This document shows, piece by piece, positions 13,746 to 37,046 of a DNA stretch of 64,000 nt. The notes under the pieces are model-generated. The model made no database searches. It saw only the letters and a program-made list of their open reading frames with translations, and was not told the DNA's origin. How positions within the stretch are numbered: position 1 is the first letter of the stretch; each line of letters begins with the position of its first letter. The position numbers and the translations under genes are program-made. The stretch spans positions 11,058-75,057 of the forward strand of contig DATHYN010000168.1 in NCBI GenBank assembly GCA_035459145.1, written 5' to 3'. This stretch comes from Anaerolineae bacterium. Its GTDB lineage: Bacteria > Chloroflexota > Anaerolineae > Promineifilales > Promineifilaceae.

Positions 13746-14756
13746 TTAATTGAAGCTATGCCTCACACTTGCTCGAAGGCGCTCTGGTGTTTGCCCTGTC
13801 CAAGCACGAAAGGCGCGATAGAACGAATTTACTTCTTCATACCCCAACAAGAATGCTATTTGTCCACTTGTGTAATCTGAGTTTGTTAGGTAATGACGTG
13901 CCAAATCTTCACGCAATTTATCTAAGACTTGCTGAAAACTGGTGCCATCACTCTTTAAATAGCGCTGTAAGGTTCGGCGACTGATAGCCAATCGCAAGGC
14001 CACATCATCAACGCTGTATTGCCCACTGGCCAAAATCTCCATCAAACAGGCACGTACTTTCTCAGTATAGGTAGCATTTTGTAACAAATCCTGCAGTCGC
14101 TGATTGAGATGGGACTCGAAGATTGACCACATGGTGTCGTTAGCAGTCAGAAATGGTCGCTCTGCATCTTGTATGGCGTATGTTACACCGTTAAAATCTG
14201 ATTTGGTGAGGCGCACACCGAAGTAATCTTCATATGCTTTTTTTTCGGGAATGTCCACATTTGTATGGATGCTCAAGGGCACAAGGTGTTCCCGTGTTGC
14301 CATGCGCGGCATATGCACCCACCAGACCAATTCCGCTGCCGCTAAACTTGGTGGCAACGCCCCATATTGGGGCAATGAACCGATTTTAATCGTGGTTTGT
14401 TCGTTCATGGTGTGAACGCTCAAGCGGATTGGGCCGACAAGGGGTTTGTAATGGGCGAGGCGTTTGGCCGCCACATTAAGATTCGGACTGCAGAAACAGG
14501 CAAATATTGGTGGGCTAAATGTTTCAGGTGTGGTACTCGTGGCAAAGTCTAACGGAAAAGTAGGATAGTCGCGTAGGACAGTTACAAACCCATCCCATAG
14601 TCTGAAGTACTCTTCACCTGTAATCATGGGTGATTTGCGAGATAGCAAATCGAGAGGTAACTGGGCATAGCGTAACACATCTTGTGATGAAACATTCATG
14701 TCCTTGAAGAGTATCTGCCACCCGTTCACCTCTACCGGGTATTTTCGATTATCCAT
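13746..14756 (-). CDS. AraC/XylS family transcriptional regulator
   Basis: The C-terminal AraC helix-turn-helix reads VDDVALRLAISRRTLQRYLK...SGQIAFLLGYEEVNSFYRAFRAWTGQTP. Confidence 0.85.
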   Translation of the reverse strand: MDNRKYPVEVNGWQILFKDMNVSSQDVLRYAQLPLDLLSRKSPMITGEEYFRLWDGFVTVLRDYPTFPLDFATSTTPETFSPPIFACFCSPNLNVAAKRLAHYKPLVGPIRLSVHTMNEQTTIKIGSLPQYGALPPSLAAAELVWWVHMPRMATREHLVPLSIHTNVDIPEKKAYEDYFGVRLTKSDFNGVTYAIQDAERPFLTANDTMWSIFESHLNQRLQDLLQNATYTEKVRACLMEILASGQYSVDDVALRLAISRRTLQRYLKSDGTSFQQVLDKLREDLARHYLTNSDYTSGQIAFLLGYEEVNSFYRAFRAWTGQTPERLRASVRHSFN

Positions 14757-14772
14757 GGGGGGTGTCCTTTTG

Positions 14773-15723
14773 TTACTTGAGGCCGACTAGGGCCATGCTG
14801 ACATCATACAGTTTGGCTGCAAGTTCAGTATCTTCCCCTTGTGGATGAGGCGATTTCATAGGCCAGCCGCCAGCGCGATTCTCTTTGTTAGGATAGAGGA
14901 TGCTATTTTGACTATAATAGGCACCATTGTGGTTAGGGGCATCATCATCGAGCAAGCAGTGGAGAGACGTTTGCGCACCTTCAAACCATGACATTGTGCC
15001 CAGCAGGCCGCTAAACGGCCGTAATAAAACATTCTGTACAAACTTGACTGGGCCTTTTGCCAGATTCGAGCGGATCCAGCCTGGATGAACGGAAAACGCA
15101 GAAACCCCCGTGCCTTCCAATCGTTGGGAGAGATCGAGTGCATGAAGAACATTGGCAAACTTAGAGTTAGCGTATGCCTGCCCGAAACGCCACTCTTTGT
15201 TGTTGAAATTCAAGTCATCAAAATCGATCTCACCAAAGATTCCGGTCATACCAGCATGGGCCACACTTGACACACAGATGATGCGTGATGGCGCACTGGC
15301 TTTCAGCATATCCAACAGAAGTTCGGTGAGCAGGAAATGCCCCAAGTGATTGACGCCAAAATCCATTTCAAACCCATCTTCAGTTCTGCCTTCAGTTTGA
15401 ACCGCAACGCCAGCGTTGTTAACAAGACCATCGAGCCGATCGTATTTGGCCTGAAACGCAGTTGCAAAACGTCGAACAGAGGCAAGGCTGGTGAGATCAA
15501 GTTCCATTATTTCGACTGAGCCTTTTAAGTTTCCCACTGCGGCAAAAGCTTCTTTTCCAGCATTAAGGCGACGGCAGGCACCCACCACATGAGCTCCCTG
15601 TTTAGCTAATTGTTCGGCCGTGGCAAAACCAGAACCAGAGTTGGCTCCCGTTACGATATAGATATGACCACTCAGGTCTTTTTTAAATAGTTTTGGATCA
15701 CACATCAATGTTTTGGGCATCAT
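14773..15723 (-). CDS. Short-chain dehydrogenase/reductase (SDR), retinol-dehydrogenase-like
   Basis: The TGANSGSG Rossmann motif is present. NNAG and the catalytic YANSK (YxxxK) are present. The gene sits adjacent to the AraC regulator. Confidence 0.9.
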   Translation of the reverse strand: MMPKTLMCDPKLFKKDLSGHIYIVTGANSGSGFATAEQLAKQGAHVVGACRRLNAGKEAFAAVGNLKGSVEIMELDLTSLASVRRFATAFQAKYDRLDGLVNNAGVAVQTEGRTEDGFEMDFGVNHLGHFLLTELLLDMLKASAPSRIICVSSVAHAGMTGIFGEIDFDDLNFNNKEWRFGQAYANSKFANVLHALDLSQRLEGTGVSAFSVHPGWIRSNLAKGPVKFVQNVLLRPFSGLLGTMSWFEGAQTSLHCLLDDDAPNHNGAYYSQNSILYPNKENRAGGWPMKSPHPQGEDTELAAKLYDVSMALVGLK

Positions 15724-15984: not shown

Positions 15985-17223
15985 TTAGAGGCGGGTGGCG
16001 GCGGCGTCGATGGTGGGGTTGAGGAGGCCGAGGGCACTGTTGATACTTTGAACAGCGAGGCCATAGTTGAATTCATCGACGCGACCCGAATCCACGCAGG
16101 ATAGATAAGCGGGGCGGCTACGATCTAAAGCGTAGACGAATGATAAGAAGTAGGCCCCATCAAGATCTTGCCAATTGCCGGGAACATCATCGTAGAAGAC
16201 AGCATTGTTTTTGATGCTATTGTACGCATTGACGTAATTTTGACAGGCGACGGCATCACCGTTTAAGGTTTGCCCCAGATTGGCATTCATCGTGTTAAGG
16301 TTGTTGCGCATGGCTACCATCTTGTTGTAAAGCTGTTGGGCATTGAAGGGACGTATAGGGAAAACACCAAGGACATCATTAGGATTGGATTGGTAGTAGA
16401 GGGTGATGTATTCAGGGGTAGGAGCTGGGGTTGGGGTGGGTGGTACAGGTGTGGCTGGTGGGGCTGGGGGGACGATAAGATCTAAGGGGTCTAAGTCGGC
16501 GGTGAGGTCAAGGACAGATGTTGAAATCCAAGCTTCTTGGCCATTTTCTAATTCGGTGACAACCCAGCTTGTGTCTTGATTACGTCCGATGAGAACGAGA
16601 CTATCACCATTGGCGGCGGTGGCTAAGACGGGATAGGCGGTGGAGGGGCCGGAACGTAAATTGACAGAGCTAATGTTGACGGCACCGAAGATGCCGGCGT
16701 CAAGCGCGAGGGTCAATTCGATGGCACCTAAGGATTCGGTAACGGAAATTGTTTGGCTAGCGTAGTTGGGGGCGGAGGCGTAGACGACATAATCGGTGAG
16801 AGTGGGGTCGAGGTTAGTGAAAAGGGCATACCCCTCGTCATCAACGGAGAGGGTGGCAGTGTAACTATCTTCGGCACTGGTTAATTTGATAGAGGCGTTG
16901 GTTACAGGTTCATCTGTATCGCTATCGAGGATAAAAACCCCAATTTGAGGGACTGGTGTGGGGGTATTGGTCGGTGTTGGTGTGGGGGATGGTGTGTTGG
17001 TGGGAGTGGGGGTAGGGGTGTTGGTGGGGGTATTGGTTGGTTCGGGGGTGTTGGTGGGGGCCGAGGTTGGTTCGGGGGTGTCTGTTTCAGTTGTCGTAAC
17101 TTCTTCAGTTGCTTCAGCGACAGAGGCTGGTGTGGTGGCGGGCTCATCGCTACCACAGGCAACGGCAAAGATCAGTAATAAACAGGTGGCAAGCAAAAGC
17201 CGCCATGTTGATGGGGAAAACAT
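15985..17223 (-). CDS. Secreted lipoprotein with Pro/Thr-rich linkers and a bacterial SH3 (SH3b) domain
   Basis: There is a signal peptide with the lipobox FAVAC. PTNTPEPTNTPT repeats follow. The SH3b-like segment reads VNLRSGPSTAYPVLATAANGDSLVLIGRNQDTSWVVTELENGQEAWI. AAGGAG lies upstream of the ATG. Confidence 0.6.
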   Translation of the reverse strand: MFSPSTWRLLLATCLLLIFAVACGSDEPATTPASVAEATEEVTTTETDTPEPTSAPTNTPEPTNTPTNTPTPTPTNTPSPTPTPTNTPTPVPQIGVFILDSDTDEPVTNASIKLTSAEDSYTATLSVDDEGYALFTNLDPTLTDYVVYASAPNYASQTISVTESLGAIELTLALDAGIFGAVNISSVNLRSGPSTAYPVLATAANGDSLVLIGRNQDTSWVVTELENGQEAWISTSVLDLTADLDPLDLIVPPAPPATPVPPTPTPAPTPEYITLYYQSNPNDVLGVFPIRPFNAQQLYNKMVAMRNNLNTMNANLGQTLNGDAVACQNYVNAYNSIKNNAVFYDDVPGNWQDLDGAYFLSFVYALDRSRPAYLSCVDSGRVDEFNYGLAVQSINSALGLLNPTIDAAATRL

Positions 17224-17697: not shown

Positions 17698-17728
17698 AGG
17701 TAGTGCGATTTAACAAATCGCACTACCT
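17698..17728. other. Perfect 14-bp inverted repeat immediately 3' of the glutamate synthase operon. It is a terminator-like hairpin.
   Basis: The sequence aggtagtgcgattt-aac-aaatcgcactacct lies 4 nt after the stop of the 861-aa gene. Confidence 0.5.
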
Positions 17729-17731
17729 AGG

Positions 17732-20317
17732 TTATTTATGGGCGACCCATGCTTCTTCGGCTTGGAGGGCGCGGACTTTGGCGGGGGCTATTTTGCGGTA
17801 AACGGCCGTTGGCTCTTGTTTGTGACCATCAACAGTTAATAGTTCATCAATGGTAATGCCAAACAGGAGTTCGTTTTCGGCCAGATACGGTTTAATTAGG
17901 TTCCAATCGGCGTAGGTGAAGGTATAAAATTCGCCACCGTTGAGTTGGTCTTTGGTGAGACGGCGATGGGGGTCACGGACGAAGATGGCACCACCAGAGG
18001 CGAGGGAGAAGAGATTGCCGCCAGGATAAGGGGTGGGGAGCTCTTCGATTTGGCCGTTGTCGTTGAGGTGGATGCCGTTGAGGATGACAAAGCCACCATT
18101 GTTGTGTGGGTCGCCGGCCATGAAGGATTCGGCGAGGTAGTCGAGGCAAGTGCCGTTGATGACGAAGCGTGGCTTACCGACAGCGTTGATGAGGGGGCGG
18201 CCGGCGGCGTTGCCGAGGATGTAGGCTTGCCCCCCTTTGGCGGCATAGCCAAAGGTTTGGCCGACGTCACCATAGACGACAAGTTTGCCCGCTTTCATAA
18301 TTTGGGCGAGTTGGTCTTGGGCGTTGCCGTGAACGTAGATATCCATACCGTCAATGCCGGAAGCGAGATAGTCGCCACTAGCGCCATAGACGTCGATGCG
18401 GACGTCACTGCTATCGGGGCCGAAGCCGTTGCCAATGAAACGGTGGCCGCCGCAGTGGATGATGAGGAAGTGGCGAAAACCGTTGTTGTAGAGGGCGTTG
18501 AGGCGGGTGGCGACGGAGTGGGGGCCTTCTGGTTCAAAGCCGCGGGCGTCGATGATGGCGGTGCCACCGTCTGCGGTTTGGGCGGGGGTATCGGCTGCGG
18601 TTTGATAGGTGAATTTGGGGGTTGGCTTGGCTTGGATGAGAGCGAAGAGGTCGTTGAGGGCTTGGTGGCAGAGGGCGGTGAGGCTGCTGCGGCGGAGTTG
18701 GCCGAGGGGGAAGCGCCGGTCGACAAGGCCGGTGAGCAAATCGAGGGTTGCTTGACGGCTGTTATCGGTCTCGGTATCGGCGAGGAGGGCGGCGAGACAG
18801 GCGCGGAACTGTTCGTAGTCCCAGTTGGGGAGTTGGTTGGTGATCCATTCAAACCGATTGGTATCGGGGAGGGTAGGTTGTTCGTTGTTAGGGGTGTTGG
18901 TGGGACGGTAGGGAGGACGGCTGGTATCGAAATGGAGCTGTTGGCCGAATTTATCGGTGCAGGTGAGGGTGGCTGCTTGGCCGTCGGCGTCGGGGCGGGC
19001 GGTGAAGATGAAAGCACCGCCATCGGTGTGACTACCACCACGAGCGTTCCAGTAGCGGTCGGCAACGGACCAGAACCGGTTATCGGAGGCGGCGAGGGAG
19101 GTGAGGGCGGCATCGATACCTTGCTTTTCGGAGGCGGCGAAACCGATGGCAGGGCCATCGTCGCCCGCTTGTTGCCAAGCGAATACTTGGGGACGGAGCA
19201 TGGAGGTATCGGTGATACAGGTGAGACGGTAGACGGGTTCTTCGTTTTCGGCTTGGGATTGGGCGATAAGGAAGAACCAAGGGCCATCAGGGGAGCTGTG
19301 CATGTGCATTACTTGCAGATTGTGGTAAATGTCTTGTTTTTCGGGGGGGAGGAGGGTGAAATCTCGTTCGGTGGTGGGGGCGAGAGATTCGATCACATAT
19401 TCGAGGGGGTATTGATAGGTGCGATGGAGGAGATCGAAGACTTGGACAGAGACTTCGGTATCGGTGAGGAAGAGGGGGTAGATGTTGCGTTGAGCGAGAT
19501 ATTCGGAGATGGAGGCGTAATTGGCGAAGTCGCCATTGTGGACGAGGGCTTCGTTCATGCCAATGAAGGGGTGGGCACCGCCGGGGTGCCAGACGCGCCC
19601 TTTGGTGGGGTAGCGGTGGTGGCCGATCCAGACGTGGGCATTGATATCTTCGAGTTGGTAGTAGCGGATGACGTCATCGGCGTAGCCTACCATTTTGATG
19701 ACGAGGAGGTTGCGGCCGTGGGAGAGGACAAAGGCACGGGTGTCGCCGGTGGAAGCGTAGAACTCTTTATTGAGTTGGAAGGTGTTTTGGAAGACGATCT
19801 CGTCTTCGATTTGACGACGGCTGATGTCAAGATTGTGCTCGGCCTGAAAAGCGTCGAACGCTTCCTGTTTGACACGGACGAAATATTGATACACTTCTGG
19901 GGGACGGACATCGAGGCCGTGGAGGGTGGTGTGATCTTCGATATGGGGAGCTTGACGGCTATGGTCGATTTCAAAAATAGTGTTGATATATTTTTCTTCG
20001 ACATCAGCGCGGCAAGATTGATCGAGATAGGCGATAACGAGGAGATAATCTTGTTCGAGAATTTGGCGGGAGACACCAAATTGGTCTGGGTCGAGGCCAA
20101 CGGCGGCGATGCCGCCCCCTTTGCCGTTACCGCGGTTGCGCATCTGTTGGAGGGCTTGGAGCATGTGGCGGCCGCCGATTTTCTCGCTACAGGCGAGACC
20201 GATGACACCACAGCCACCCTCGGCCGCTTGGTTACGGTCATTAAATTGCAAATCCCAATCTGGTTTCAGTTGACGACGGGATTGGAGAATCGTTTTAATT
20301 GTTTGGGGAGAGGTCAT
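17732..20317 (-). CDS. Glutamate synthase subunit fusing a class II glutamine amidotransferase domain to the C-terminal GXGXG domain
   Basis: The N-terminal CGVIGLA follows the propeptide, marking an Ntn amidotransferase. The C-terminal third shows GltB domain-3 repeats: DVRIDVYGASGDYLASGIDGMDIYVHGNAQDQ...VVYGDVGQTFGYAAKGGQAYILGNAAGRPL...FVINGTCLDYLAESFMAG. Confidence 0.8.
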   Translation of the reverse strand: MTSPQTIKTILQSRRQLKPDWDLQFNDRNQAAEGGCGVIGLACSEKIGGRHMLQALQQMRNRGNGKGGGIAAVGLDPDQFGVSRQILEQDYLLVIAYLDQSCRADVEEKYINTIFEIDHSRQAPHIEDHTTLHGLDVRPPEVYQYFVRVKQEAFDAFQAEHNLDISRRQIEDEIVFQNTFQLNKEFYASTGDTRAFVLSHGRNLLVIKMVGYADDVIRYYQLEDINAHVWIGHHRYPTKGRVWHPGGAHPFIGMNEALVHNGDFANYASISEYLAQRNIYPLFLTDTEVSVQVFDLLHRTYQYPLEYVIESLAPTTERDFTLLPPEKQDIYHNLQVMHMHSSPDGPWFFLIAQSQAENEEPVYRLTCITDTSMLRPQVFAWQQAGDDGPAIGFAASEKQGIDAALTSLAASDNRFWSVADRYWNARGGSHTDGGAFIFTARPDADGQAATLTCTDKFGQQLHFDTSRPPYRPTNTPNNEQPTLPDTNRFEWITNQLPNWDYEQFRACLAALLADTETDNSRQATLDLLTGLVDRRFPLGQLRRSSLTALCHQALNDLFALIQAKPTPKFTYQTAADTPAQTADGGTAIIDARGFEPEGPHSVATRLNALYNNGFRHFLIIHCGGHRFIGNGFGPDSSDVRIDVYGASGDYLASGIDGMDIYVHGNAQDQLAQIMKAGKLVVYGDVGQTFGYAAKGGQAYILGNAAGRPLINAVGKPRFVINGTCLDYLAESFMAGDPHNNGGFVILNGIHLNDNGQIEELPTPYPGGNLFSLASGGAIFVRDPHRRLTKDQLNGGEFYTFTYADWNLIKPYLAENELLFGITIDELLTVDGHKQEPTAVYRKIAPAKVRALQAEEAWVAHK

Positions 20318-20340
20318 GATTTAATCCTATAGTGAAAAGT

Positions 20341-21651
20341 TTAGCCGATATAGCGGAGGAGGTCACGGCGGCCACGGAGTTGAGCGATGCTGGTGAGGCC
20401 GAGGCGGCGGAGAATATCTTCAAGTTGGTAGGCGATAGCTTGGTAGAGGTTGATGATGCGTTGTGAGCCCCAATCGGTGGTGATGAGGAGGGAGAGTTCG
20501 GGGTCGGTGGTGGTGAGACCATAGGGACAGCCACGGCCACGCTCACAGTTGGAGCAGCGGGTACAGCCCATGGCGACGAGATCGCCGGTGCCGATGACAC
20601 AGCCATCGGCGCCGAGGGCGATCGCTTTGGCCATGTCGTAGGCGGTGCGAATGCCGCCACTAGCGATCACGGTGACTTGGTCGCGGATGCCTTCGCTGTC
20701 GAGGTAGCGATGGACTTTGGGGATGGCGAATTCGATAGGCATGGCGATATTTTTCTTGGCGATTTCGGGGGCGGCGCCAGTGCCACCGTAAGAGCCGTCG
20801 AGGTGGATGATGTGGGCGCCAGCGTAGTAACTGCCGACAGCGACCATATCGACATCGTGGGGGGTGGAGACTTTGACGGAGATGAGGGCTTCGGGGTTGA
20901 TGGCGAGAACCCAATCGACATGTTTGCGGTGGTCTTCAACGGAGTAGACGGAGTGGAAGGGGAAGGGGGAGAAGAGGCTGACCCAAGGGACGCTTTCGCG
21001 CAGTTGGGCGACGGTGGTGGTGCTTTTGTCACCGAGAAGGTGGCCGCCGAGGCCGGGTTTAGCCCCTTGGGCGTATTTAAATTCGATGATGGGGGCATGT
21101 TGGATCGTTTCTTCACGGACACCGAACATACCGGTGGCAACTTGGGTGATGATAACATCTTTATACTCGATGAGAGCGGGCGGGTAGCCCCCTTCGCCGG
21201 TGCAGGTGAAAGTACCCATTTTACGGGCAGCGATAGCACGGGCGACCATGACTTGTTCGCTGACGGAGCCGTAGGACATGCCACCACCGTAGAAGGGGAG
21301 TTTGATGGTGTGTTCGCGGCCTTGGCCGCGGCGGTTGAGGGGGATGGAAAGGTCGATGTTGGTGTCGGTAGCGGTCCATTGGTCTTGAGGGAGGAATTTA
21401 AAGTCGAGGTGGTCGAAGCCACCATCAGAGCGACCGACACGGTATTCAAGGCCGTTGGTGGGTGGTTTGGCGTGTTCGGCCATGTACCAAGTGGAGAGGA
21501 TGAGGTCATCGGTCCAGCGGTGGTCGCCGAGGGCGGGTGGGGGGCCATTTTCTAGCGTTGGCCAGTAGGAAAAGCCATCATGGAGGGCTTTAATATGTTT
21601 ATTAACAGCGATTTGATTAACAGGAATTGTATTATTGTCGTTATTACTCAT
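20341..21651 (-). CDS. Glutamate synthase FMN-binding and Fe-S domain subunit, equivalent to GltB domain 2
   Basis: KYAQGAKPGLGGHLLG matches the FMN-domain signature QGAKPGEGG. ASGGIRTAYDMAKAIALGADGCVIGTG is present. A Cys cluster reads MGCTRCSNCERGRGCPYG. The start overlaps the stop of the upstream gene by 8 nt. Confidence 0.85.
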   Translation of the reverse strand: MSNNDNNTIPVNQIAVNKHIKALHDGFSYWPTLENGPPPALGDHRWTDDLILSTWYMAEHAKPPTNGLEYRVGRSDGGFDHLDFKFLPQDQWTATDTNIDLSIPLNRRGQGREHTIKLPFYGGGMSYGSVSEQVMVARAIAARKMGTFTCTGEGGYPPALIEYKDVIITQVATGMFGVREETIQHAPIIEFKYAQGAKPGLGGHLLGDKSTTTVAQLRESVPWVSLFSPFPFHSVYSVEDHRKHVDWVLAINPEALISVKVSTPHDVDMVAVGSYYAGAHIIHLDGSYGGTGAAPEIAKKNIAMPIEFAIPKVHRYLDSEGIRDQVTVIASGGIRTAYDMAKAIALGADGCVIGTGDLVAMGCTRCSNCERGRGCPYGLTTTDPELSLLITTDWGSQRIINLYQAIAYQLEDILRRLGLTSIAQLRGRRDLLRYIG

Positions 21652-23074
21652 TATAGCCCTCGATACCGGCGAACGCTTCGCGTTCTAAATCTTTGTGGAA
21701 CATAGCGCGGCCCATTTCGCCGCGGAGGCGGCGGACCTCGCGGAGGCCCATCGCGCCCATAATTTCGAGCAGTTGGTCACGCCAAGTGGCCATCACATTT
21801 TGGAGACGTTGGACGCCCCAGGGGATGTTGAGGTTGTGGGGGATGGTGCAGGGGTCGGTGGGGGATTTGTATTGACCTTTGAAGCGAGTTTGGAGGGCGA
21901 CGAGAAGGGGGGTATTGATGATGACGGCATCGAGGCCGGCGATAATCGCTTTGGGAACATGTTCGGCGGCGATGATGCCACCACTGCCGAGAAGGGTGAC
22001 CTCGTCGCGGGTGCCGTTATTGACGAAATGGTTATGGGCTTGGCGGATGAGGTCGAGGACGAAAGTGCCATCGGCGGCTTGGCCGTGGTAGTTGGCGGTG
22101 AGGTGGAAGATACGGATACCAGCGCCGTAGGCGGTGGCGATTGTTTTGAGGTCGGAGAAGGGGAGGCGGAGGGCGATGTGGGTGTGGGGGAGTTGTTGTT
22201 GGACAGTGGCGTATAGATTGGGGTCCCAGCTGTTTAATTCGACAAGTTTGGGGGTGTCGTGGAGGAGGCCGAGTTGGTGGCTGTTATCGGGGGTGAGGTG
22301 AGGGACGAGGTGGGGGCCGTGGAGGTGGTTGTCGAGGATGGTGCCGAGGGGGAGGATGGCGAGAGTTTGGACGTTGGTGGCGGTGCGACTGTAGATAGTG
22401 GGGAGGAGGGGGACATTAGGGTTTGGTGGGGGCATATCGAAGATGATGGGGAGGGGGATGGTGAAGGTATCTGGGGTATGGGTTTGGTCGAGAGAGCCAT
22501 CGGGATTGAAGAAGAGGAAGGGGGGTTTGGCGCCGATGTCGACGACGGTGGAGATAAATTCACGGCCGTGGATACCATCACGAGTGGGGCGGACGATTTC
22601 GGACATATCGGTCCACATGCTGTCCCAGCCGTGGCCGGCGAAGCGGCCGCGGTAGCCGGCGCCACGAACGGGGATGCGGCCGTGTTCGGCTTCGTAGGTG
22701 ATGGCATTGACGTGGGTGGTGTTGAAATAGTTGTCGCCGAGGGTAGCGCGTTCGGGATTGGGGGTGACGGTGACAAAGTCTGGGTGTTCAGTGGTACAGC
22801 GGAGACAGCCAACACAATATTGGTCCCGAGGCATAAAGCCACCAACAGGGCCAGAGAAGACACCATAAAGACAAGGGCGACTCAGCACGGTATCGAGGTC
22901 GCCTTTGTAGTGCCGTAGTTCGGTTAATAACAGTTTAGCTAAGCCGATTTTATTGACAGTGACATTAAAGCGACTGGGCCATGGGATAATATCGGGGGCG
23001 GGATCGGTTTCGATATGATAGCGCACATAGGCGTTGCTATTTGGTGTCGGAGGGGTATGATTATTTGCAGACAT
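21644..23074 (-). CDS. Paralog of the glutamate synthase domain-2 (FMN-domain-like TIM barrel) subunit with N-terminal Cys motifs
   Basis: TLLGSGGIIAAEHVPKAIIAGLDAVIINTPLLVAL resembles the GltS FMN-domain C-terminal barrel. CVGCLRCT is a ferredoxin-like motif. It lacks the QGAKPGEGG signature. AAAGAG lies 8 nt upstream of the ATG at 23074. The tracker start at 23101 is a TTG. Confidence 0.65.
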   Translation of the reverse strand: MSANNHTPPTPNSNAYVRYHIETDPAPDIIPWPSRFNVTVNKIGLAKLLLTELRHYKGDLDTVLSRPCLYGVFSGPVGGFMPRDQYCVGCLRCTTEHPDFVTVTPNPERATLGDNYFNTTHVNAITYEAEHGRIPVRGAGYRGRFAGHGWDSMWTDMSEIVRPTRDGIHGREFISTVVDIGAKPPFLFFNPDGSLDQTHTPDTFTIPLPIIFDMPPPNPNVPLLPTIYSRTATNVQTLAILPLGTILDNHLHGPHLVPHLTPDNSHQLGLLHDTPKLVELNSWDPNLYATVQQQLPHTHIALRLPFSDLKTIATAYGAGIRIFHLTANYHGQAADGTFVLDLIRQAHNHFVNNGTRDEVTLLGSGGIIAAEHVPKAIIAGLDAVIINTPLLVALQTRFKGQYKSPTDPCTIPHNLNIPWGVQRLQNVMATWRDQLLEIMGAMGLREVRRLRGEMGRAMFHKDLEREAFAGIEGYNE

Positions 23075-23576
23075 AATGACTCTTTGGGTGATAGATAGCA
23101 AAGTTCAGTCATTGTTTAAGCCTAAACGGTTTGATTAGCATAAAACTTGACTAAAAATTTACTGGTAGATGTTAAAAAATTTTAGGAAAGAGGGGAGAAT
23201 GTGTAGAGAGTGCAAAATTAGGATTTGGGGAAGACTCTTAACTAAAACTTGGAGAAATTTGAATGTTCATAAGAGGTAATTTTAAGAAAAAAAAGGGGAA
23301 TGGGCAAGGTAAATTGGCCGAGATGCAGACGGGAGAAATTTGGGGTAGAGAAAATGTAAAAATTTATGGTAGGGGGGTGATAAGTAGTTTTACATAAAAT
23401 TACTATTTTCATATTGAAAGTAAAGTGGTATTATAGTATGCAAGTCAATTTCCAGATGGTTTTTGTGTGACTGTAATTGTTTAGCAAAAATAATTGGTAT
23501 GAAAAAACGGCCTTTAGGAAAATAGCTTAGGTGTTAATAAATTGACCTGTTTTAGACTACGAAACGAGATAATTAC

Positions 23577-25654: not shown

Positions 25655-28132
25655 ATGGGATTATGTTTTATGAGCAGTAATGTAAAACAAACCAACAAAC
25701 CAGACACGCAAGACGAGGTATCGAAACAGGCGTGGCAGCAAGCATCGATTGTGACTGCCAACAGTTTGAATAAGGTAGCTCAAGATGCGCATGAGGCGGG
25801 GATGACACAGTTGTCGTTGCCGCAGATGACAGAGATGGTGGAGTCAGTCTCAAAGGCGGTACCAGCGGGTAATATACCTAGTCTGATATTAGAGCGTTTG
25901 ACGCAGATGCGGACGGAAACACCACCACAAGAGACGATGGATAAAGATATTTATCTATTATTTGATACCTCAAAACGGTTTATGAGTCAGGCGATGTATA
26001 TGACTTTTGCGGTGACGCCGGCCAAAGTGATTGGGTCGTATCAGAAGTTGTTGCAATTGGCGGGGATGGATCCATTGGCGTCATTTCCGGAAGGGGTGTG
26101 GCAATTTTATGTGAATTATGCATTGCGTGAAGATACGGCACGGCATACGAATGAGACGCATGGTTTTGACACGATTTTGAAGCGGTATGGGATTAGTTTG
26201 TCGTTGGTGGATCGGGTGACAGCGTGGGTGATGGGAGTAATTCATACGTTGCATGAGTATGATAGTTTATTAGAGAATGAGTGGCGGGAGCGGACATACA
26301 CCTATATTTTGCAGACAGTGATGGCTGATTCGGATGAGGCGGAGTGGTATGAGCGGATTTATCGGCGGTGGGAGGTGCAACGGCCGTTTCGTCGCAGTCA
26401 CGATGCGAAGTCACAAGAGACATATGCGCGCTATCGGCGACGGTTGTTTGATGAGTTTTTGCGTGAAGCGATAGATAAGTTGACACCAGAGCAGCAGATG
26501 GCATGGGGGCAGGCGGTTAAAGAGGCGAAAAAATCATTGCCCGCCTATCAGAAGCAGATGACGATTGCTTCTTTCTTAGAACCACATGCTTATGGGGAGA
26601 CACGGCATCGCATTCCGATTGATGAGTTGCAGGTGGGTATTATTCATGATGGTCATTATTATTTGATTCCGGCGTGTAAACCGGATACGAGTGAACCGGC
26701 ATCGGTGATGGAGGTACGGGCTCATGTGGCGGCGATTGTGGCGGATGAGGTACGGCCGACACCGACATCATTGATTCCGTTAGCGACGATGAAGCGGGCG
26801 GCATTGGCTGGTTATTTGCCATCGATGAGTAAATTGTTTCGGCAGAATTTAGATTTGTTGTGTAAAGCGCCTATTTTGATTAATACGGAGCCAAGGCCGA
26901 GGGGGTTGCCATTATCAGATTTGCGACAGGCCGAGCGGGGTATTGGATCCCATCCATTGACAATTTTTGATACGCACGAGACGTTTGTCTTTGATCAATC
27001 ACATATTTTCTTTGATGGAGCGTGGGGAGCGGGTTTAGCGGAGATTATTACGGGGCAGGCGTTGGCTTGGGGGCATTATCTGAACAATTTGAAGGTGCCG
27101 GCTGGTCGGAAAGAGGGGGTCGAGCCTTTGTTGTTTGTGTGGGAGAAGCGGGATCGGAAAAATTTGGTGCAGGTAACGGAACAAGTCATGTTAGAGGTGA
27201 GTGCGGAGACGGATGCGGTCGCTTTGCATGCAATTTTGGCCTTGCGCAAGTTGTGTAAGCAACGCAATGATCTGATTACGGTAACGGTTAATGATTTATT
27301 GATTTTGTATCGGGCTATTCATGCGATTACGTATCAGCCACAGGCACAATTGGTGATGGAGTTGGAGCAGTTGGCGACGGAACCAGAAAGTACTGAGGCG
27401 GCGATGATGGCGTTGAATGAGATTCAAAACCATCATAATCCAGCGTTGTTAATTCCAATTGATGCGACTCATCGGATTCCTGGGGATCGCGTTTACCCGA
27501 TGGTGTTTGAAGTGCCCTTGGAAGAGTTAAACTTCCTGAATTTGCACCGTAGCACGGTGAGGGCCTTAGATGCATATGAGACAGGGACGGGTGATCGCAC
27601 CCCGTTATACGCGGAATTTGATCGGTTACAGCGGACATATTTGGCGAACCTAGCCGGTTTTGGTATGGTGTTGACGCGAGCGAAGTTGGCGGCCACAGCG
27701 GGCGAGTCAGTTAGTACACAAGCGATACGTATGTTAGCTAATTTGCCCACAGCAGTACAGCGGATGTTAGATGATATTCCATCCCGTTTTGAAGTGTTAA
27801 ATGATATGATTAAAGGGCGGGAAGTTTTTTCTAATTGCGGGGCGGTGGTGTCAACAAGCTCTTTGACACGGTTTAATACAGCTAAAGATGATAATCAACA
27901 CAAAGTATTAGCTTGGGGCGTTTTAACGGATGCTAAGGGGATTATGCATATTACCTTGCGCGATTTTCGACCACATGTGTGGGCGCTAATCGAAACGGGA
28001 CGGCGTGATTTAGCCCAAAGGATTACAGCAGATTATTTACAAAGTTATGCAATTGGTTTGAATGTTTTTGTTCAGGAAGTACGGCGCATCACCGCGGTTA
28101 GTCGTGAAACCCAACTAGTAATGGATATGTAG
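25655..28132 (+). CDS. Large 825-aa conserved-looking hypothetical protein with no recognisable domain and no transmembrane segment
   Basis: The reading frame is uninterrupted and codon usage is coding-like. Its stop TAG lies 2 nt before the ATG of the downstream Ser/Thr kinase, which implies translational coupling. Confidence 0.6.
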   Translation: MGLCFMSSNVKQTNKPDTQDEVSKQAWQQASIVTANSLNKVAQDAHEAGMTQLSLPQMTEMVESVSKAVPAGNIPSLILERLTQMRTETPPQETMDKDIYLLFDTSKRFMSQAMYMTFAVTPAKVIGSYQKLLQLAGMDPLASFPEGVWQFYVNYALREDTARHTNETHGFDTILKRYGISLSLVDRVTAWVMGVIHTLHEYDSLLENEWRERTYTYILQTVMADSDEAEWYERIYRRWEVQRPFRRSHDAKSQETYARYRRRLFDEFLREAIDKLTPEQQMAWGQAVKEAKKSLPAYQKQMTIASFLEPHAYGETRHRIPIDELQVGIIHDGHYYLIPACKPDTSEPASVMEVRAHVAAIVADEVRPTPTSLIPLATMKRAALAGYLPSMSKLFRQNLDLLCKAPILINTEPRPRGLPLSDLRQAERGIGSHPLTIFDTHETFVFDQSHIFFDGAWGAGLAEIITGQALAWGHYLNNLKVPAGRKEGVEPLLFVWEKRDRKNLVQVTEQVMLEVSAETDAVALHAILALRKLCKQRNDLITVTVNDLLILYRAIHAITYQPQAQLVMELEQLATEPESTEAAMMALNEIQNHHNPALLIPIDATHRIPGDRVYPMVFEVPLEELNFLNLHRSTVRALDAYETGTGDRTPLYAEFDRLQRTYLANLAGFGMVLTRAKLAATAGESVSTQAIRMLANLPTAVQRMLDDIPSRFEVLNDMIKGREVFSNCGAVVSTSSLTRFNTAKDDNQHKVLAWGVLTDAKGIMHITLRDFRPHVWALIETGRRDLAQRITADYLQSYAIGLNVFVQEVRRITAVSRETQLVMDM

Positions 28133-28134
28133 CA

Positions 28135-29958
28135 ATGGAAGATGGCTTAGTTGGTCGCCGATTGGCGAATTATCGCATTGAGAGATTATTGGGTCAAGGG
28201 GGGATGGCTCAAGTATATTATGGTATTGATGAGAGTTTGCATCGTCCGGTGGCGATCAAGGCGATTGATTCGCGTTGGGGGCATCGGGAGACGTACATTC
28301 AGCGTTTGATTCAAGAAGCGCGGTCAATGGCGACATGGCGTCATGAGCATATTTTGCAGGTGTATTATGCGGGGCAAGAAGAGTATCTGTATTATTTTGC
28401 TATGGAGTATATTGACGGGCTTAATTTAGAGCAATCATTGACAGAGTATGGCGCGCGTGGGCAGTTAGCACCACAAGATGATGTATTGAACATTGGGGAG
28501 GCGGTAGCGTCTGCGTTAGATTATGCGCATGAGAAAGGGGTGGTACATCGGGATATAAAGCCGTCTAATGTGATGATTGCGAAAGATGGGCGGGTGGTAT
28601 TGGCGGATTTCGGGTTGGCGATGGATCAGCAGAGAGGGTCGTTGGGGGAGACGTTTGGGTCGCCACATTATATAGCGCCGGAGCAGGCGCGGAGCTCAGC
28701 GGCGGCGGTAGCGCAGTCGGATTTGTATGCGTTGGGGGTGATTTTGTATGAGATGTTAACGGGGGTGGTACCGTTTGATGATCCGTCACCGATGAGTATT
28801 GCGTTGATGCATTTGACAGATGCGCCACCATCGCCGCGGCAACTGAATCCGCGGTTGAATGAAGCGACGGAAGAGGTGTTGTTGAAGGCGTTGAGCAAGG
28901 AGCCTGAGGATCGGTATCCGTCGGGGGAGGCGTTAATGGAGGCGTTGCGGGAGGCGTTGGCTGAAGGGGAGATGGAGCCGGAGGTGCCGACGGAGTTGCC
29001 GCCGATGCCAACGGCCGTTTCAACCCCCTATGCGCGGCCGGTATCGCAGATGTCGATTGTGGATTTGGTGATGTTGCAGGCCGAGGCGGGTGTTGATTCT
29101 TTTTCGAACTTACCAAAAGTAGCCACGTCGAATAGTGTTATGAGGGAAGAGTTGCCCCGGTTGCCGGCGAGTGTGGTGACACCTGATCAAGGGCAAAAGC
29201 GGCAACAACGGTTTATCTATGGGGCTTTGGTCGGTTTGGTGTTGGTTGCTTTGTGTGGGGTGGTGTGGTTTATTCTTAATCCTGATCTTTTTATTCAAGT
29301 GGTTGATCCCACGCCGACATCGACGCCAACGACGGCGCCAACGCGGCAGCAAATTGTGGATGTGTCTTCCCCAACGGTAACGGCATCGGCCACACCGATT
29401 CCGGTGCCTAAAATCACACGGTTGACGCCAACTAACACACCAACCTTAACACCGTCGCCGTCGCCGACGGCGACGCCTGTGCCACCAACGCGGACACCAA
29501 CACCGACAAAGGTAACGACGCCGACAGCGACACCAACGGCGACACCCGTTACTGAAGGGCAACAGGTATTATTGTTATACAATGATTATAGTTTTTATCT
29601 ATTAAATTTAAGCGAAGATATCATCACGCCTAATTTATTGGTTTTAGAAGCGATTGATAATAGTACGGGAGATGGTACTAATTATCTATTTCCAGGGAAT
29701 CAATGGTCCCGTTTCTTCCCGCAAATTGATCCGGGGTATTGTGGCGGCATTGAGCCGGTTGAATCACCAGCCTTTCGTTTGTTGCGACCAACACAGTGTA
29801 CGGGATTTAATGCGATTGTGACCCCTGGGACAGACAATGAGTTGGTCTTTTGGATAGCGCGTGAGAATGTTGATCAGTTTCGTGCGTTGTGGCGCGGTCG
29901 TGAAGTGGGACGTTGTGATAGCCAAGTATCCGTTTGCGAAATATTTTTACCAGAATAA
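28135..29958 (+). CDS. Hanks-type serine/threonine protein kinase with one transmembrane helix, a Pro/Thr-rich linker and an unknown extracellular Cys-containing domain
   Basis: The glycine loop LGQGGMAQVY is present with AIK. The catalytic loop reads HRDIKPSN and DFG reads DFGLA. APE is present. The transmembrane segment is LVGLVLVALCGVVWFIL. TPTPT repeats follow. Confidence 0.9.
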   Translation: MEDGLVGRRLANYRIERLLGQGGMAQVYYGIDESLHRPVAIKAIDSRWGHRETYIQRLIQEARSMATWRHEHILQVYYAGQEEYLYYFAMEYIDGLNLEQSLTEYGARGQLAPQDDVLNIGEAVASALDYAHEKGVVHRDIKPSNVMIAKDGRVVLADFGLAMDQQRGSLGETFGSPHYIAPEQARSSAAAVAQSDLYALGVILYEMLTGVVPFDDPSPMSIALMHLTDAPPSPRQLNPRLNEATEEVLLKALSKEPEDRYPSGEALMEALREALAEGEMEPEVPTELPPMPTAVSTPYARPVSQMSIVDLVMLQAEAGVDSFSNLPKVATSNSVMREELPRLPASVVTPDQGQKRQQRFIYGALVGLVLVALCGVVWFILNPDLFIQVVDPTPTSTPTTAPTRQQIVDVSSPTVTASATPIPVPKITRLTPTNTPTLTPSPSPTATPVPPTRTPTPTKVTTPTATPTATPVTEGQQVLLLYNDYSFYLLNLSEDIITPNLLVLEAIDNSTGDGTNYLFPGNQWSRFFPQIDPGYCGGIEPVESPAFRLLRPTQCTGFNAIVTPGTDNELVFWIARENVDQFRALWRGREVGRCDSQVSVCEIFLPE

Positions 29959-36690: not shown

Positions 36691-37046
36691 AATACTACCT
36701 GCCTACAATGGGTCAATATGGCTACATCAAGTTGTAAAATAGATATGATGGTAGTTAATTTTACCACAGATTGTGGCATATATCGCTATTATGGAAATTA
36801 AGCTTATATGGTGTGAAACCTGAATAAAACGTTAAAATTGGTGACAAATCAGGGTAGTATTGGGGTGATATGCTTGACAATTTGGATCATTTTGATTAGA
36901 ATTTGCAATCTGTATAGACTAGCTGAATCTTTATTGAATGGAGGTTAATGGTAACCAAAATTTAACCCAAACATTTTTATTGAGTAGTTTCAGTTTTAAA
37001 CCTTTGTGTAGTGCAAAGATTTTGTTTAAAGGAGTTTGTCTTAAGT

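Follow-up and report, generated by a model that had tools for sequence, protein, structure and literature searches.

A widespread three-gene cassette, present in an Anaerolineae genome, for a probable split glutamate synthase with a second flavin-barrel protein

Positions 17732-23074 of a 64-kb stretch of DNA from an Anaerolineae metagenome-assembled genome (the window, below) are filled, according to the list of open reading frames (ORFs), by three co-directional minus-strand genes, labelled here A, B and C in the order A-B-C, which probably encode a split glutamate synthase (GltS). A division of this enzyme into three products had been proposed in an earlier reading made from the DNA letters (the sequence-only reading), and three ORFs do lie at this place. 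That reading had also described the three genes as overlapping, which holds for the A/B junction, where the end of A and the start of B share 8 nucleotides, ATGAGTAA, but not for B and C: the stop of B and the start of C are 23 nucleotides apart, with AGGA preceding the ATG of C. The 485 residues that it gave for the first product depend on the TTG codon at 23101, at which A begins in the ORF list; the NCBI protein P0121, 100% identical to the gene A product, starts at the ATG matching coordinate 23074 and is 476 residues long. A further NCBI protein, P0001, was likewise 100% identical to a window protein, and both belong to a contig of 75 kb. A, B and C are real genes, with conserved homologs numbering in the thousands for each. 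The coordinates of the cassette and of its features are collected in Table 1.

Table 1. Features of the A-B-C cassette and its flanks in window coordinates (aa, amino acids; FMN, flavin mononucleotide; Fe-S, iron-sulfur; TIM, triose-phosphate isomerase; Ntn, N-terminal nucleophile).
Feature	Position	Strand	Description and basis
Gene A	21644-23074	minus	476 aa, or 485 aa with the TTG at 23101 as start; degenerate FMN-subunit paralog
Four invariant Cys of A (C68, C87, C90, C93)	22796-22873	minus	putative [4Fe-4S] site
A-specific motif WTDMSEIVRPTRDGIHGRE	22559-22615	minus	residues 154-172
TIM barrel of A	21710-22543	minus	residues ~178-455; without the loop that carries QGAKPG...LRES in B
Gene B	20341-21651	minus	436 aa; FMN/synthase subunit
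QGAKPGLGGH motif of B	21040-21069	minus	motif scan; canonical form QGAKPGEGGQ
Fe-S motif of B, CTRCSNCERGRGCP	20524-20565	minus	alignment with Azospirillum GltS and motif scan
Gene C	17732-20317	minus	861 aa; amidotransferase-GXGXG fusion
Ntn amidotransferase domain of C	18953-20212	minus	residues 36-455; alignment, motifs and model
Four-helix linker of C	18629-18856	minus	residues 488-563; AlphaFold model
GXGXG beta-helix of C	17918-18613	minus	residues 569-800; Pfam, FwdC profile matches, Foldseek and model
Intergenic spacer	23075-23576		502 bp, AT-rich; between A and the divergent gene of a GAF histidine kinase
Hairpin	17698-17728		perfect, 14 bp; 3 nt past the stop codon of C

The product of gene B matched the Pfam family Glu_synthase (PF01645) at 4.2e-91 and the large chains of GltS in the PDB at 4e-54, aligning to their FMN domain, and judged by these matches it is a genuine GltS FMN barrel, in agreement with the sequence-only reading, which had taken it for the true FMN/Fe-S module. 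In alignment to GltS its substrate loop, QGAKPGLGGH...LRES against the canonical QGAKPGEGGQ...R, keeps the Gln, the Lys and the Arg of the 2-oxoglutarate region, with Glu replaced by Leu and Gln by His, and the form QGAKPGLGGH was identical in all 42 B sequences compared. The nearest other family was that of the archaeal-type GltB carrying a ferredoxin domain (P0276, 41% identity), a result that upholds the earlier designation of the operon as archaeal-type. The loop of P0276 reads GIGGH, so that G[IL]GGH is common to B and its archaeal-type relatives, and GLGGH is thus a trait of the branch and not an oddity of the window. The Fe-S motif of B (C-x2-C-x2-C-x5-C-P) aligned with the three-Cys motif of Azospirillum GltS and has one Cys more. 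No ferredoxin domain was found in the B protein of the window, which has no Cys in its first 140 residues.

The Pfam content of C was limited to GATase_6 (residues 226-294) and GXGXG (residues 636-789, 1.6e-10), and the AlphaFold model (pLDDT, the predicted local distance difference test, 76) consisted of the amidotransferase, the four-helix linker and the beta-helix with the boundaries given in Table 1. The best Foldseek matches of this model were the large chains of GltS, and its fold also matched GlmS and PurF. The catalytic residues C36, R235, N261, G262 and D286 were all intact and invariant across 22 homologs, and by analogy with GltB and PurF, from which a propeptide is removed, residues 1-35 are likely a propeptide whose cleavage would expose Cys36. 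The linker was poorly conserved, the alignment having few invariant columns from residue 460 to residue 620. The possibility of a central or FMN domain hidden in the middle of C was ruled out: none was seen in Pfam or in the fold search, and the model shows only the four-helix linker there. Pfam and the model therefore both agree with the earlier claim of a direct fusion of amidotransferase and GXGXG in C. None of the three proteins gave a match above the Pfam cut-off to the central domain of canonical GltS (Glu_syn_central, PF04898).

The first protein, A, is a clear paralog of B by profile comparison, the two aligning over nearly their whole length (hhalign probability 100%, E 6e-42), although the Pfam match of A to Glu_synthase was weak (1.1e-5) and confined to residues 352-407. 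By these matches A is related to glutamate synthase. As had been noticed from the sequence, this FMN-domain paralog has a Cys motif and lacks QGAKPGEGG; the motif scan found no QGAKPG at all. What is absent is a substrate loop of about 70 residues, which in B holds KYAQGAKPGLGGH...LRES, together with the GGGMSYG strand and the DGSYGGTGAAP motif of B. In contrast, the GSGG(I) phosphate-binding loop and an invariant Lys (Lys375) are kept. The Cys quartet of A was invariant in 49 sequences from many phyla and has a weak likeness to half of a PsaC-type ferredoxin, suggesting that these four Cys bind an Fe-S cluster. The motif WTDMSEIVRPTRDGIHGRE was found in all of 49 A sequences from many phyla and was nearly invariant in the alignment; its pLDDT in the monomer model was below 50, which suggests an interface loop. 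Overall, A has 54 invariant columns across phyla and 50-60% identity across Chloroflexota and Acidobacteriota, and the Cys quartet and WTDMSEIVRPTRDGIHGRE are evidently under purifying selection across phyla. A as a homolog of the central domain was ruled out by sequence, the probability being 90% for the FMN domain and 0.3% for the central domain.

The cassette turned out to be widespread. Relatives of C were found in more than 7,600 scored database clusters and in at least 588 species genomes of many phyla, and those of A numbered more than 7,900. Among Bacteria, C is carried by Chloroflexota, Acidobacteriota, Gemmatimonadota, Methylomirabilota, Chlamydiota, Deinococcota (Calidithermus roseus), Thermalbibacter longus, Verrucomicrobiota, Planctomycetota, Desulfobacterota and Actinomycetota, and among Archaea by Thermoplasmata, anaerobic methanotrophs of group 1 (ANME-1) and Methanospirareceae. 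In 80 related loci fetched from Bacteria and Archaea for comparison of gene order, the order A-B-C was kept in about 70; where the contig extends far enough upstream it was kept in all loci save three, and A was first in the operon throughout. A layout that had seemed unusual in a single genome is thus the standard one of a very large, mostly bacterial family. Nor is A an "extra" paralog, as it had been called: it is obligatory, being present wherever the cassette is intact, and in some lineages it is fused to B. Such in-frame A-B fusions of about 990 residues (P0241, P0243, P0244, P0246 and P0248) came from a search of B against 1.8 billion representatives. Single chains with a flavin adenine dinucleotide (FAD)-linked oxidase followed by A, B and C were represented by P0265 (3,016 residues), P0275, P0288 and P0292, and the order in P0272 was C, FAD oxidase, A and B in one chain. 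The five giant fusions are 2,200-3,150 residues long and contain FAD_binding_4, FAD-oxidase_C and Cys-rich segments. The A-B and FAD-oxidase-A-B-C fusions, together with the kept gene order, indicate that the products of A, B and C form one enzyme.

Two clades of the cassette could be recognized. In the clade of the window A has a single Cys quartet and B lacks a ferredoxin domain, while in the other, comprising Verrucomicrobiota, Planctomycetota, Desulfobacterota and ANME-1, A and B each have an N-terminal 2x[4Fe-4S] domain and A additionally keeps a C-terminal cluster motif; the window version, lacking these Fe-S domains, is therefore a streamlined form. With its gene order, the Cys quartet, WTDMSEIVRPTRDGIHGRE, QGAKPGLGGH and the fused C, the window has all the features of the family and holds an ordinary member of the A-B-C type.

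The neighbours of the cassette in other genomes included glutamine synthetase, adjoining it in 6 loci, and carAB, adjoining it in 5. In at least 11 loci of the second clade the cassette sits within the string MvhD-MetF-[A-B-C]-HdrC-HdrB-HdrA/GltD-like-MvhD-MetV, and this Hdr/methylene-tetrahydrofolate reductase string hints at a redox link to glutamate synthesis. The string with HdrA was seen in Verrucomicrobiota and Planctomycetota (L050, 3674-17728; L054, L061, L063, L068, L077 and others), and its HdrA is a protein of 1,500 residues with an inserted GltD-like NAD(P)H module. In the 64-kb window no gltD was detected by tblastn with E. coli GltD as the query, in line with what the sequence-only reading had stated, and glnA, metF and hdrA were not found in it either.

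Taken together, the sequences make it probable that the three genes code for a single heteromeric glutamate synthase belonging to a distinct type, A-B-C, its most likely function being that of a glutamine:2-oxoglutarate amidotransferase without an NADPH subunit, fed by ferredoxin via the Fe-S cluster of A. In such an enzyme C would shed its propeptide of 35 residues, exposing Cys36, and hydrolyse glutamine, and the beta-helix of C on its helical linker would help to dock the amidotransferase onto the barrel subunits. The ammonia would pass to B, where 2-oxoglutarate would be aminated and the imine reduced by FMN. A would be a second barrel packed against B and C, with its Fe-S cluster as the point of electron entry, so that electrons may run from an external donor to the cluster of A, the cluster of B and finally FMN. 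Since no NAD(P)H subunit is encoded, the donor would probably be reduced ferredoxin.

A review of the canonical enzyme describes its central domain as a truncated barrel, perhaps derived from a duplication of the FMN barrel, and the tunnel of GltS as lined by the FMN and central domains (PMC8097209). This proposal gives a precedent for a second, non-catalytic barrel, of which A would be a full-length example: a duplicated FMN barrel that is not detectably the same domain as the central domain. A bolder version, entertained here only tentatively, is that the A-B-C type is a major unstudied class of GltS in which the full-length duplicate A does the job of the truncated central domain. If so, the class would present a living picture of how the central domain came about through duplication and decay of the FMN barrel, and A would be a plug-in port for different donors: ferredoxin in the window, the FAD-linked oxidase in the giant fusions and, in other phyla, HdrABC-MvhD/GltD-like modules near MetFV.

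Several points speak against the reading of A, B and C as one heteromeric glutamate synthase. No enzymatic assay of any member of the A-B-C type was found in the literature; in three loci (L012, L045 and L052) C occurs without A and B nearby; and hhalign gave a probability of 0.3%, with no sequence similarity, for A against the central domain of E. coli. The GLGGH of B in place of the canonical GEGGQ means that specificity could differ, which would suit, instead of a glutamate synthase, an amidotransferase or aminating reductase related to it but with another 2-oxo acid or an amine as substrate, in the manner of N-methylglutamate synthase (MgsABC). The amidotransferase domain of C, which by sequence scores higher against models of GlmS and PurF than against GltB, points in the same direction, and split GltB-like proteins with other functions do exist, MgsABC being an example. 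Yet Gln, Lys and Arg are retained in the 2-oxoglutarate region of B (QGAK...LRES), GIGGH is also present in archaeal-type relatives of GltB, and the amidotransferase domain is 420 residues long, a size typical of GltS, has its Asn-Gly at mature positions 226-227 and finds its best fold matches among GltS chains. Together with glnA and carAB as neighbours at other loci (none beside the window cassette), this makes a different substrate rather improbable.

The GSGG loop and Lys of A might persist for binding of a flavin or another ligand, making A more than a scaffold. Extended further, this would make A another subunit that is catalytic or binds a cofactor, such as a second flavin, in a complex that couples glutamate synthesis to another redox reaction, possibly with electron bifurcation in the Hdr-linked lineages. 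The GSGGI loop, the invariant Lys375 and the invariant charged motif of A are under strong selection, up to six Fe-S sites are present on A and B in Verrucomicrobiota, Planctomycetota and Desulfobacterota, and in the same phyla the cassette sits inside the Hdr string; but the window version has shed most of the clusters, A retaining one Cys quartet and B no ferredoxin domain, there are no Hdr, MetF or GltD genes in the window, and A is devoid of the DGSYGGTGAAP and substrate-loop motifs of B. Such a role seems unlikely, albeit slightly less so than a different substrate. The opposite view, that A is a functionless decaying duplicate and the enzyme effectively B plus C, could invoke the loss of the catalytic loop and, in the clade of the window, also of the C-terminal Fe-S motif and half of the ferredoxin domain. 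It is hard to reconcile with the 50-60% identity of A across Chloroflexota and Acidobacteriota, its 54 invariant columns across phyla, its more than 7,900 relatives, its constant first place in the operon and its in-frame fusion to B in several lineages, and is accordingly considered highly improbable. A single heteromeric glutamate synthase thus remains the favored explanation.

When ammonium is low, nitrogen enters biomass mainly through glutamate synthase. If the cassette supplies the working enzyme in Anaerolineae, many Acidobacteriota, Verrucomicrobiota, Planctomycetota, Desulfobacterota and some Archaea, this enzyme is handled only loosely in annotation and metabolic models; in public annotation A is often labelled "hypothetical" or "glutamate synthase-related". 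The cassette also represents a natural experiment in how an ammonia tunnel and an electron path are built from separate parts, and could serve to test whether the central domain originated by duplication, as has been proposed, while its donor modules may link nitrogen assimilation to ferredoxin or Hdr-type redox chemistry.

The operon promoter presumably lies within the spacer upstream of A, where only weak promoter-like sites were seen; scans for promoters and terminators returned nothing beyond weak matches to the consensus. No Rfam match (E up to 1) to a riboswitch or other RNA was obtained upstream of A, and the sole Rfam match was a chance one to mir-23 on the hairpin 3' of C. The role of this hairpin as a terminator is uncertain, the minus strand having no T tract after it. 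The ten flanking genes were unrelated to the cassette and encode a glycoside hydrolase of family 31 (GH31), an AraC-type regulator, a short-chain dehydrogenase, an SH3 protein, the GAF kinase, a Ser/Thr kinase, endonuclease V and unknowns. The SH3 protein, just downstream of the cassette (15985-17223, minus strand), is a secreted protein with a long Pro/Thr-rich linker, CarboxypepD_reg and SH3_3, and is not kept beside the cassette in other genomes. At 25655-29958 a protein of 825 residues without a Pfam match is followed, after a gap of 2 nucleotides, by the Ser/Thr protein kinase.

The window has an extreme strand composition bias, the plus strand over its whole length (1-64000) containing 33.6% G and 17.0% C. 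The GC skew at third codon positions lay between about +0.5 and +0.9 for genes on the plus strand and between about -0.6 and -0.9 for those on the minus strand; the sign flips with the gene strand, so that the plus strand is depleted in C whatever the gene direction and the bias tracks the DNA strand and not transcription. Among the 80 related loci, none of which was similar to the window, the absolute skew had a median of 0.025 and reached at most 0.195. The cause is either a very strong mutational bias tied to the replication strand or an artefact of sequencing or assembly, and the literature yielded nothing relevant on GC skew in Anaerolineae. The AraC-type regulator, the short-chain dehydrogenase and a 628-residue ORF (13746-15723, 37011-38897) were unbiased, and their third-position skew near 0 suggests that they are recent horizontal arrivals. 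Two antisense stop-free ORFs on the plus strand, at 17945-20332 (795 residues, opposite C) and 20677-21555 (292 residues, opposite B), are rich in G, V, E and D; they result from the G-richness of the plus strand and are not genes.

Among known systems, there is a likeness to subunit C of formylmethanofuran dehydrogenase (FwdC), whose profiles and structures are matched by the beta-helix of C; only the GXGXG fold is shared, and other Fwd subunits were not present. MgsABC likewise consists of three proteins, homologs of the amidotransferase, GXGXG and FMN domains of GltB, and is clustered with gmaS and mgdABCD. Its partition differs from that of the cassette in having MgsA and MgsB separate and no second barrel, and gmaS and mgdABCD were absent among the ten genes flanking the cassette in the window.

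The archaeal-type split GltS resembles the cassette in having the large-subunit domains on separate genes and an FMN protein nearest to B, and the A and B proteins of the sister clade bear the same N-terminal 2x[4Fe-4S] domain. However, the archaeal-type FMN protein has about 500 residues and includes this domain, in contrast to B of the window, and its amidotransferase and GXGXG proteins are separate, whereas the cassette fuses them in C and has A as an additional barrel subunit. Published work covers archaeal glutamate synthases of the split kind and, for methanogens, putative F420-dependent forms (PMC3087415; PMC9012536), with a fourth, FrhB-like subunit proposed (PMC3087415); no FrhB-like gene was seen among the annotated neighbours of the cassette.

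The canonical GltS, comprising GltB of the NADPH-dependent enzyme and the ferredoxin-dependent form (PDB 1ea0, 1ofd, 6s6s and 7mfm), matched B and C best in both sequence and fold. It shares with the cassette the Ntn amidotransferase with Cys1, Arg, Asn-Gly and Asp, the FMN barrel with the QGAKPG loop and an Fe-S motif, and the C-terminal GXGXG beta-helix. In contrast to the three proteins of the cassette, these parts form a single chain of 1,500 residues in the order amidotransferase, central, FMN and GXGXG, which in the bacterial NADPH-dependent enzyme (GltBD) is accompanied by GltD, without a counterpart in the 64 kb analysed. Where the canonical enzyme has Glu_syn_central, GEGGQ and a three-Cys cluster motif, the cassette has a full-length FMN-barrel paralog with its own Cys quartet, GLGGH and a four-Cys motif. 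The literature found contains no description of the A-B-C cassette, only background on split and F420-dependent archaeal forms and on the origin of the central domain; as far as it goes, the A-B-C type would represent a hitherto undescribed variant within the known glutamate synthases.

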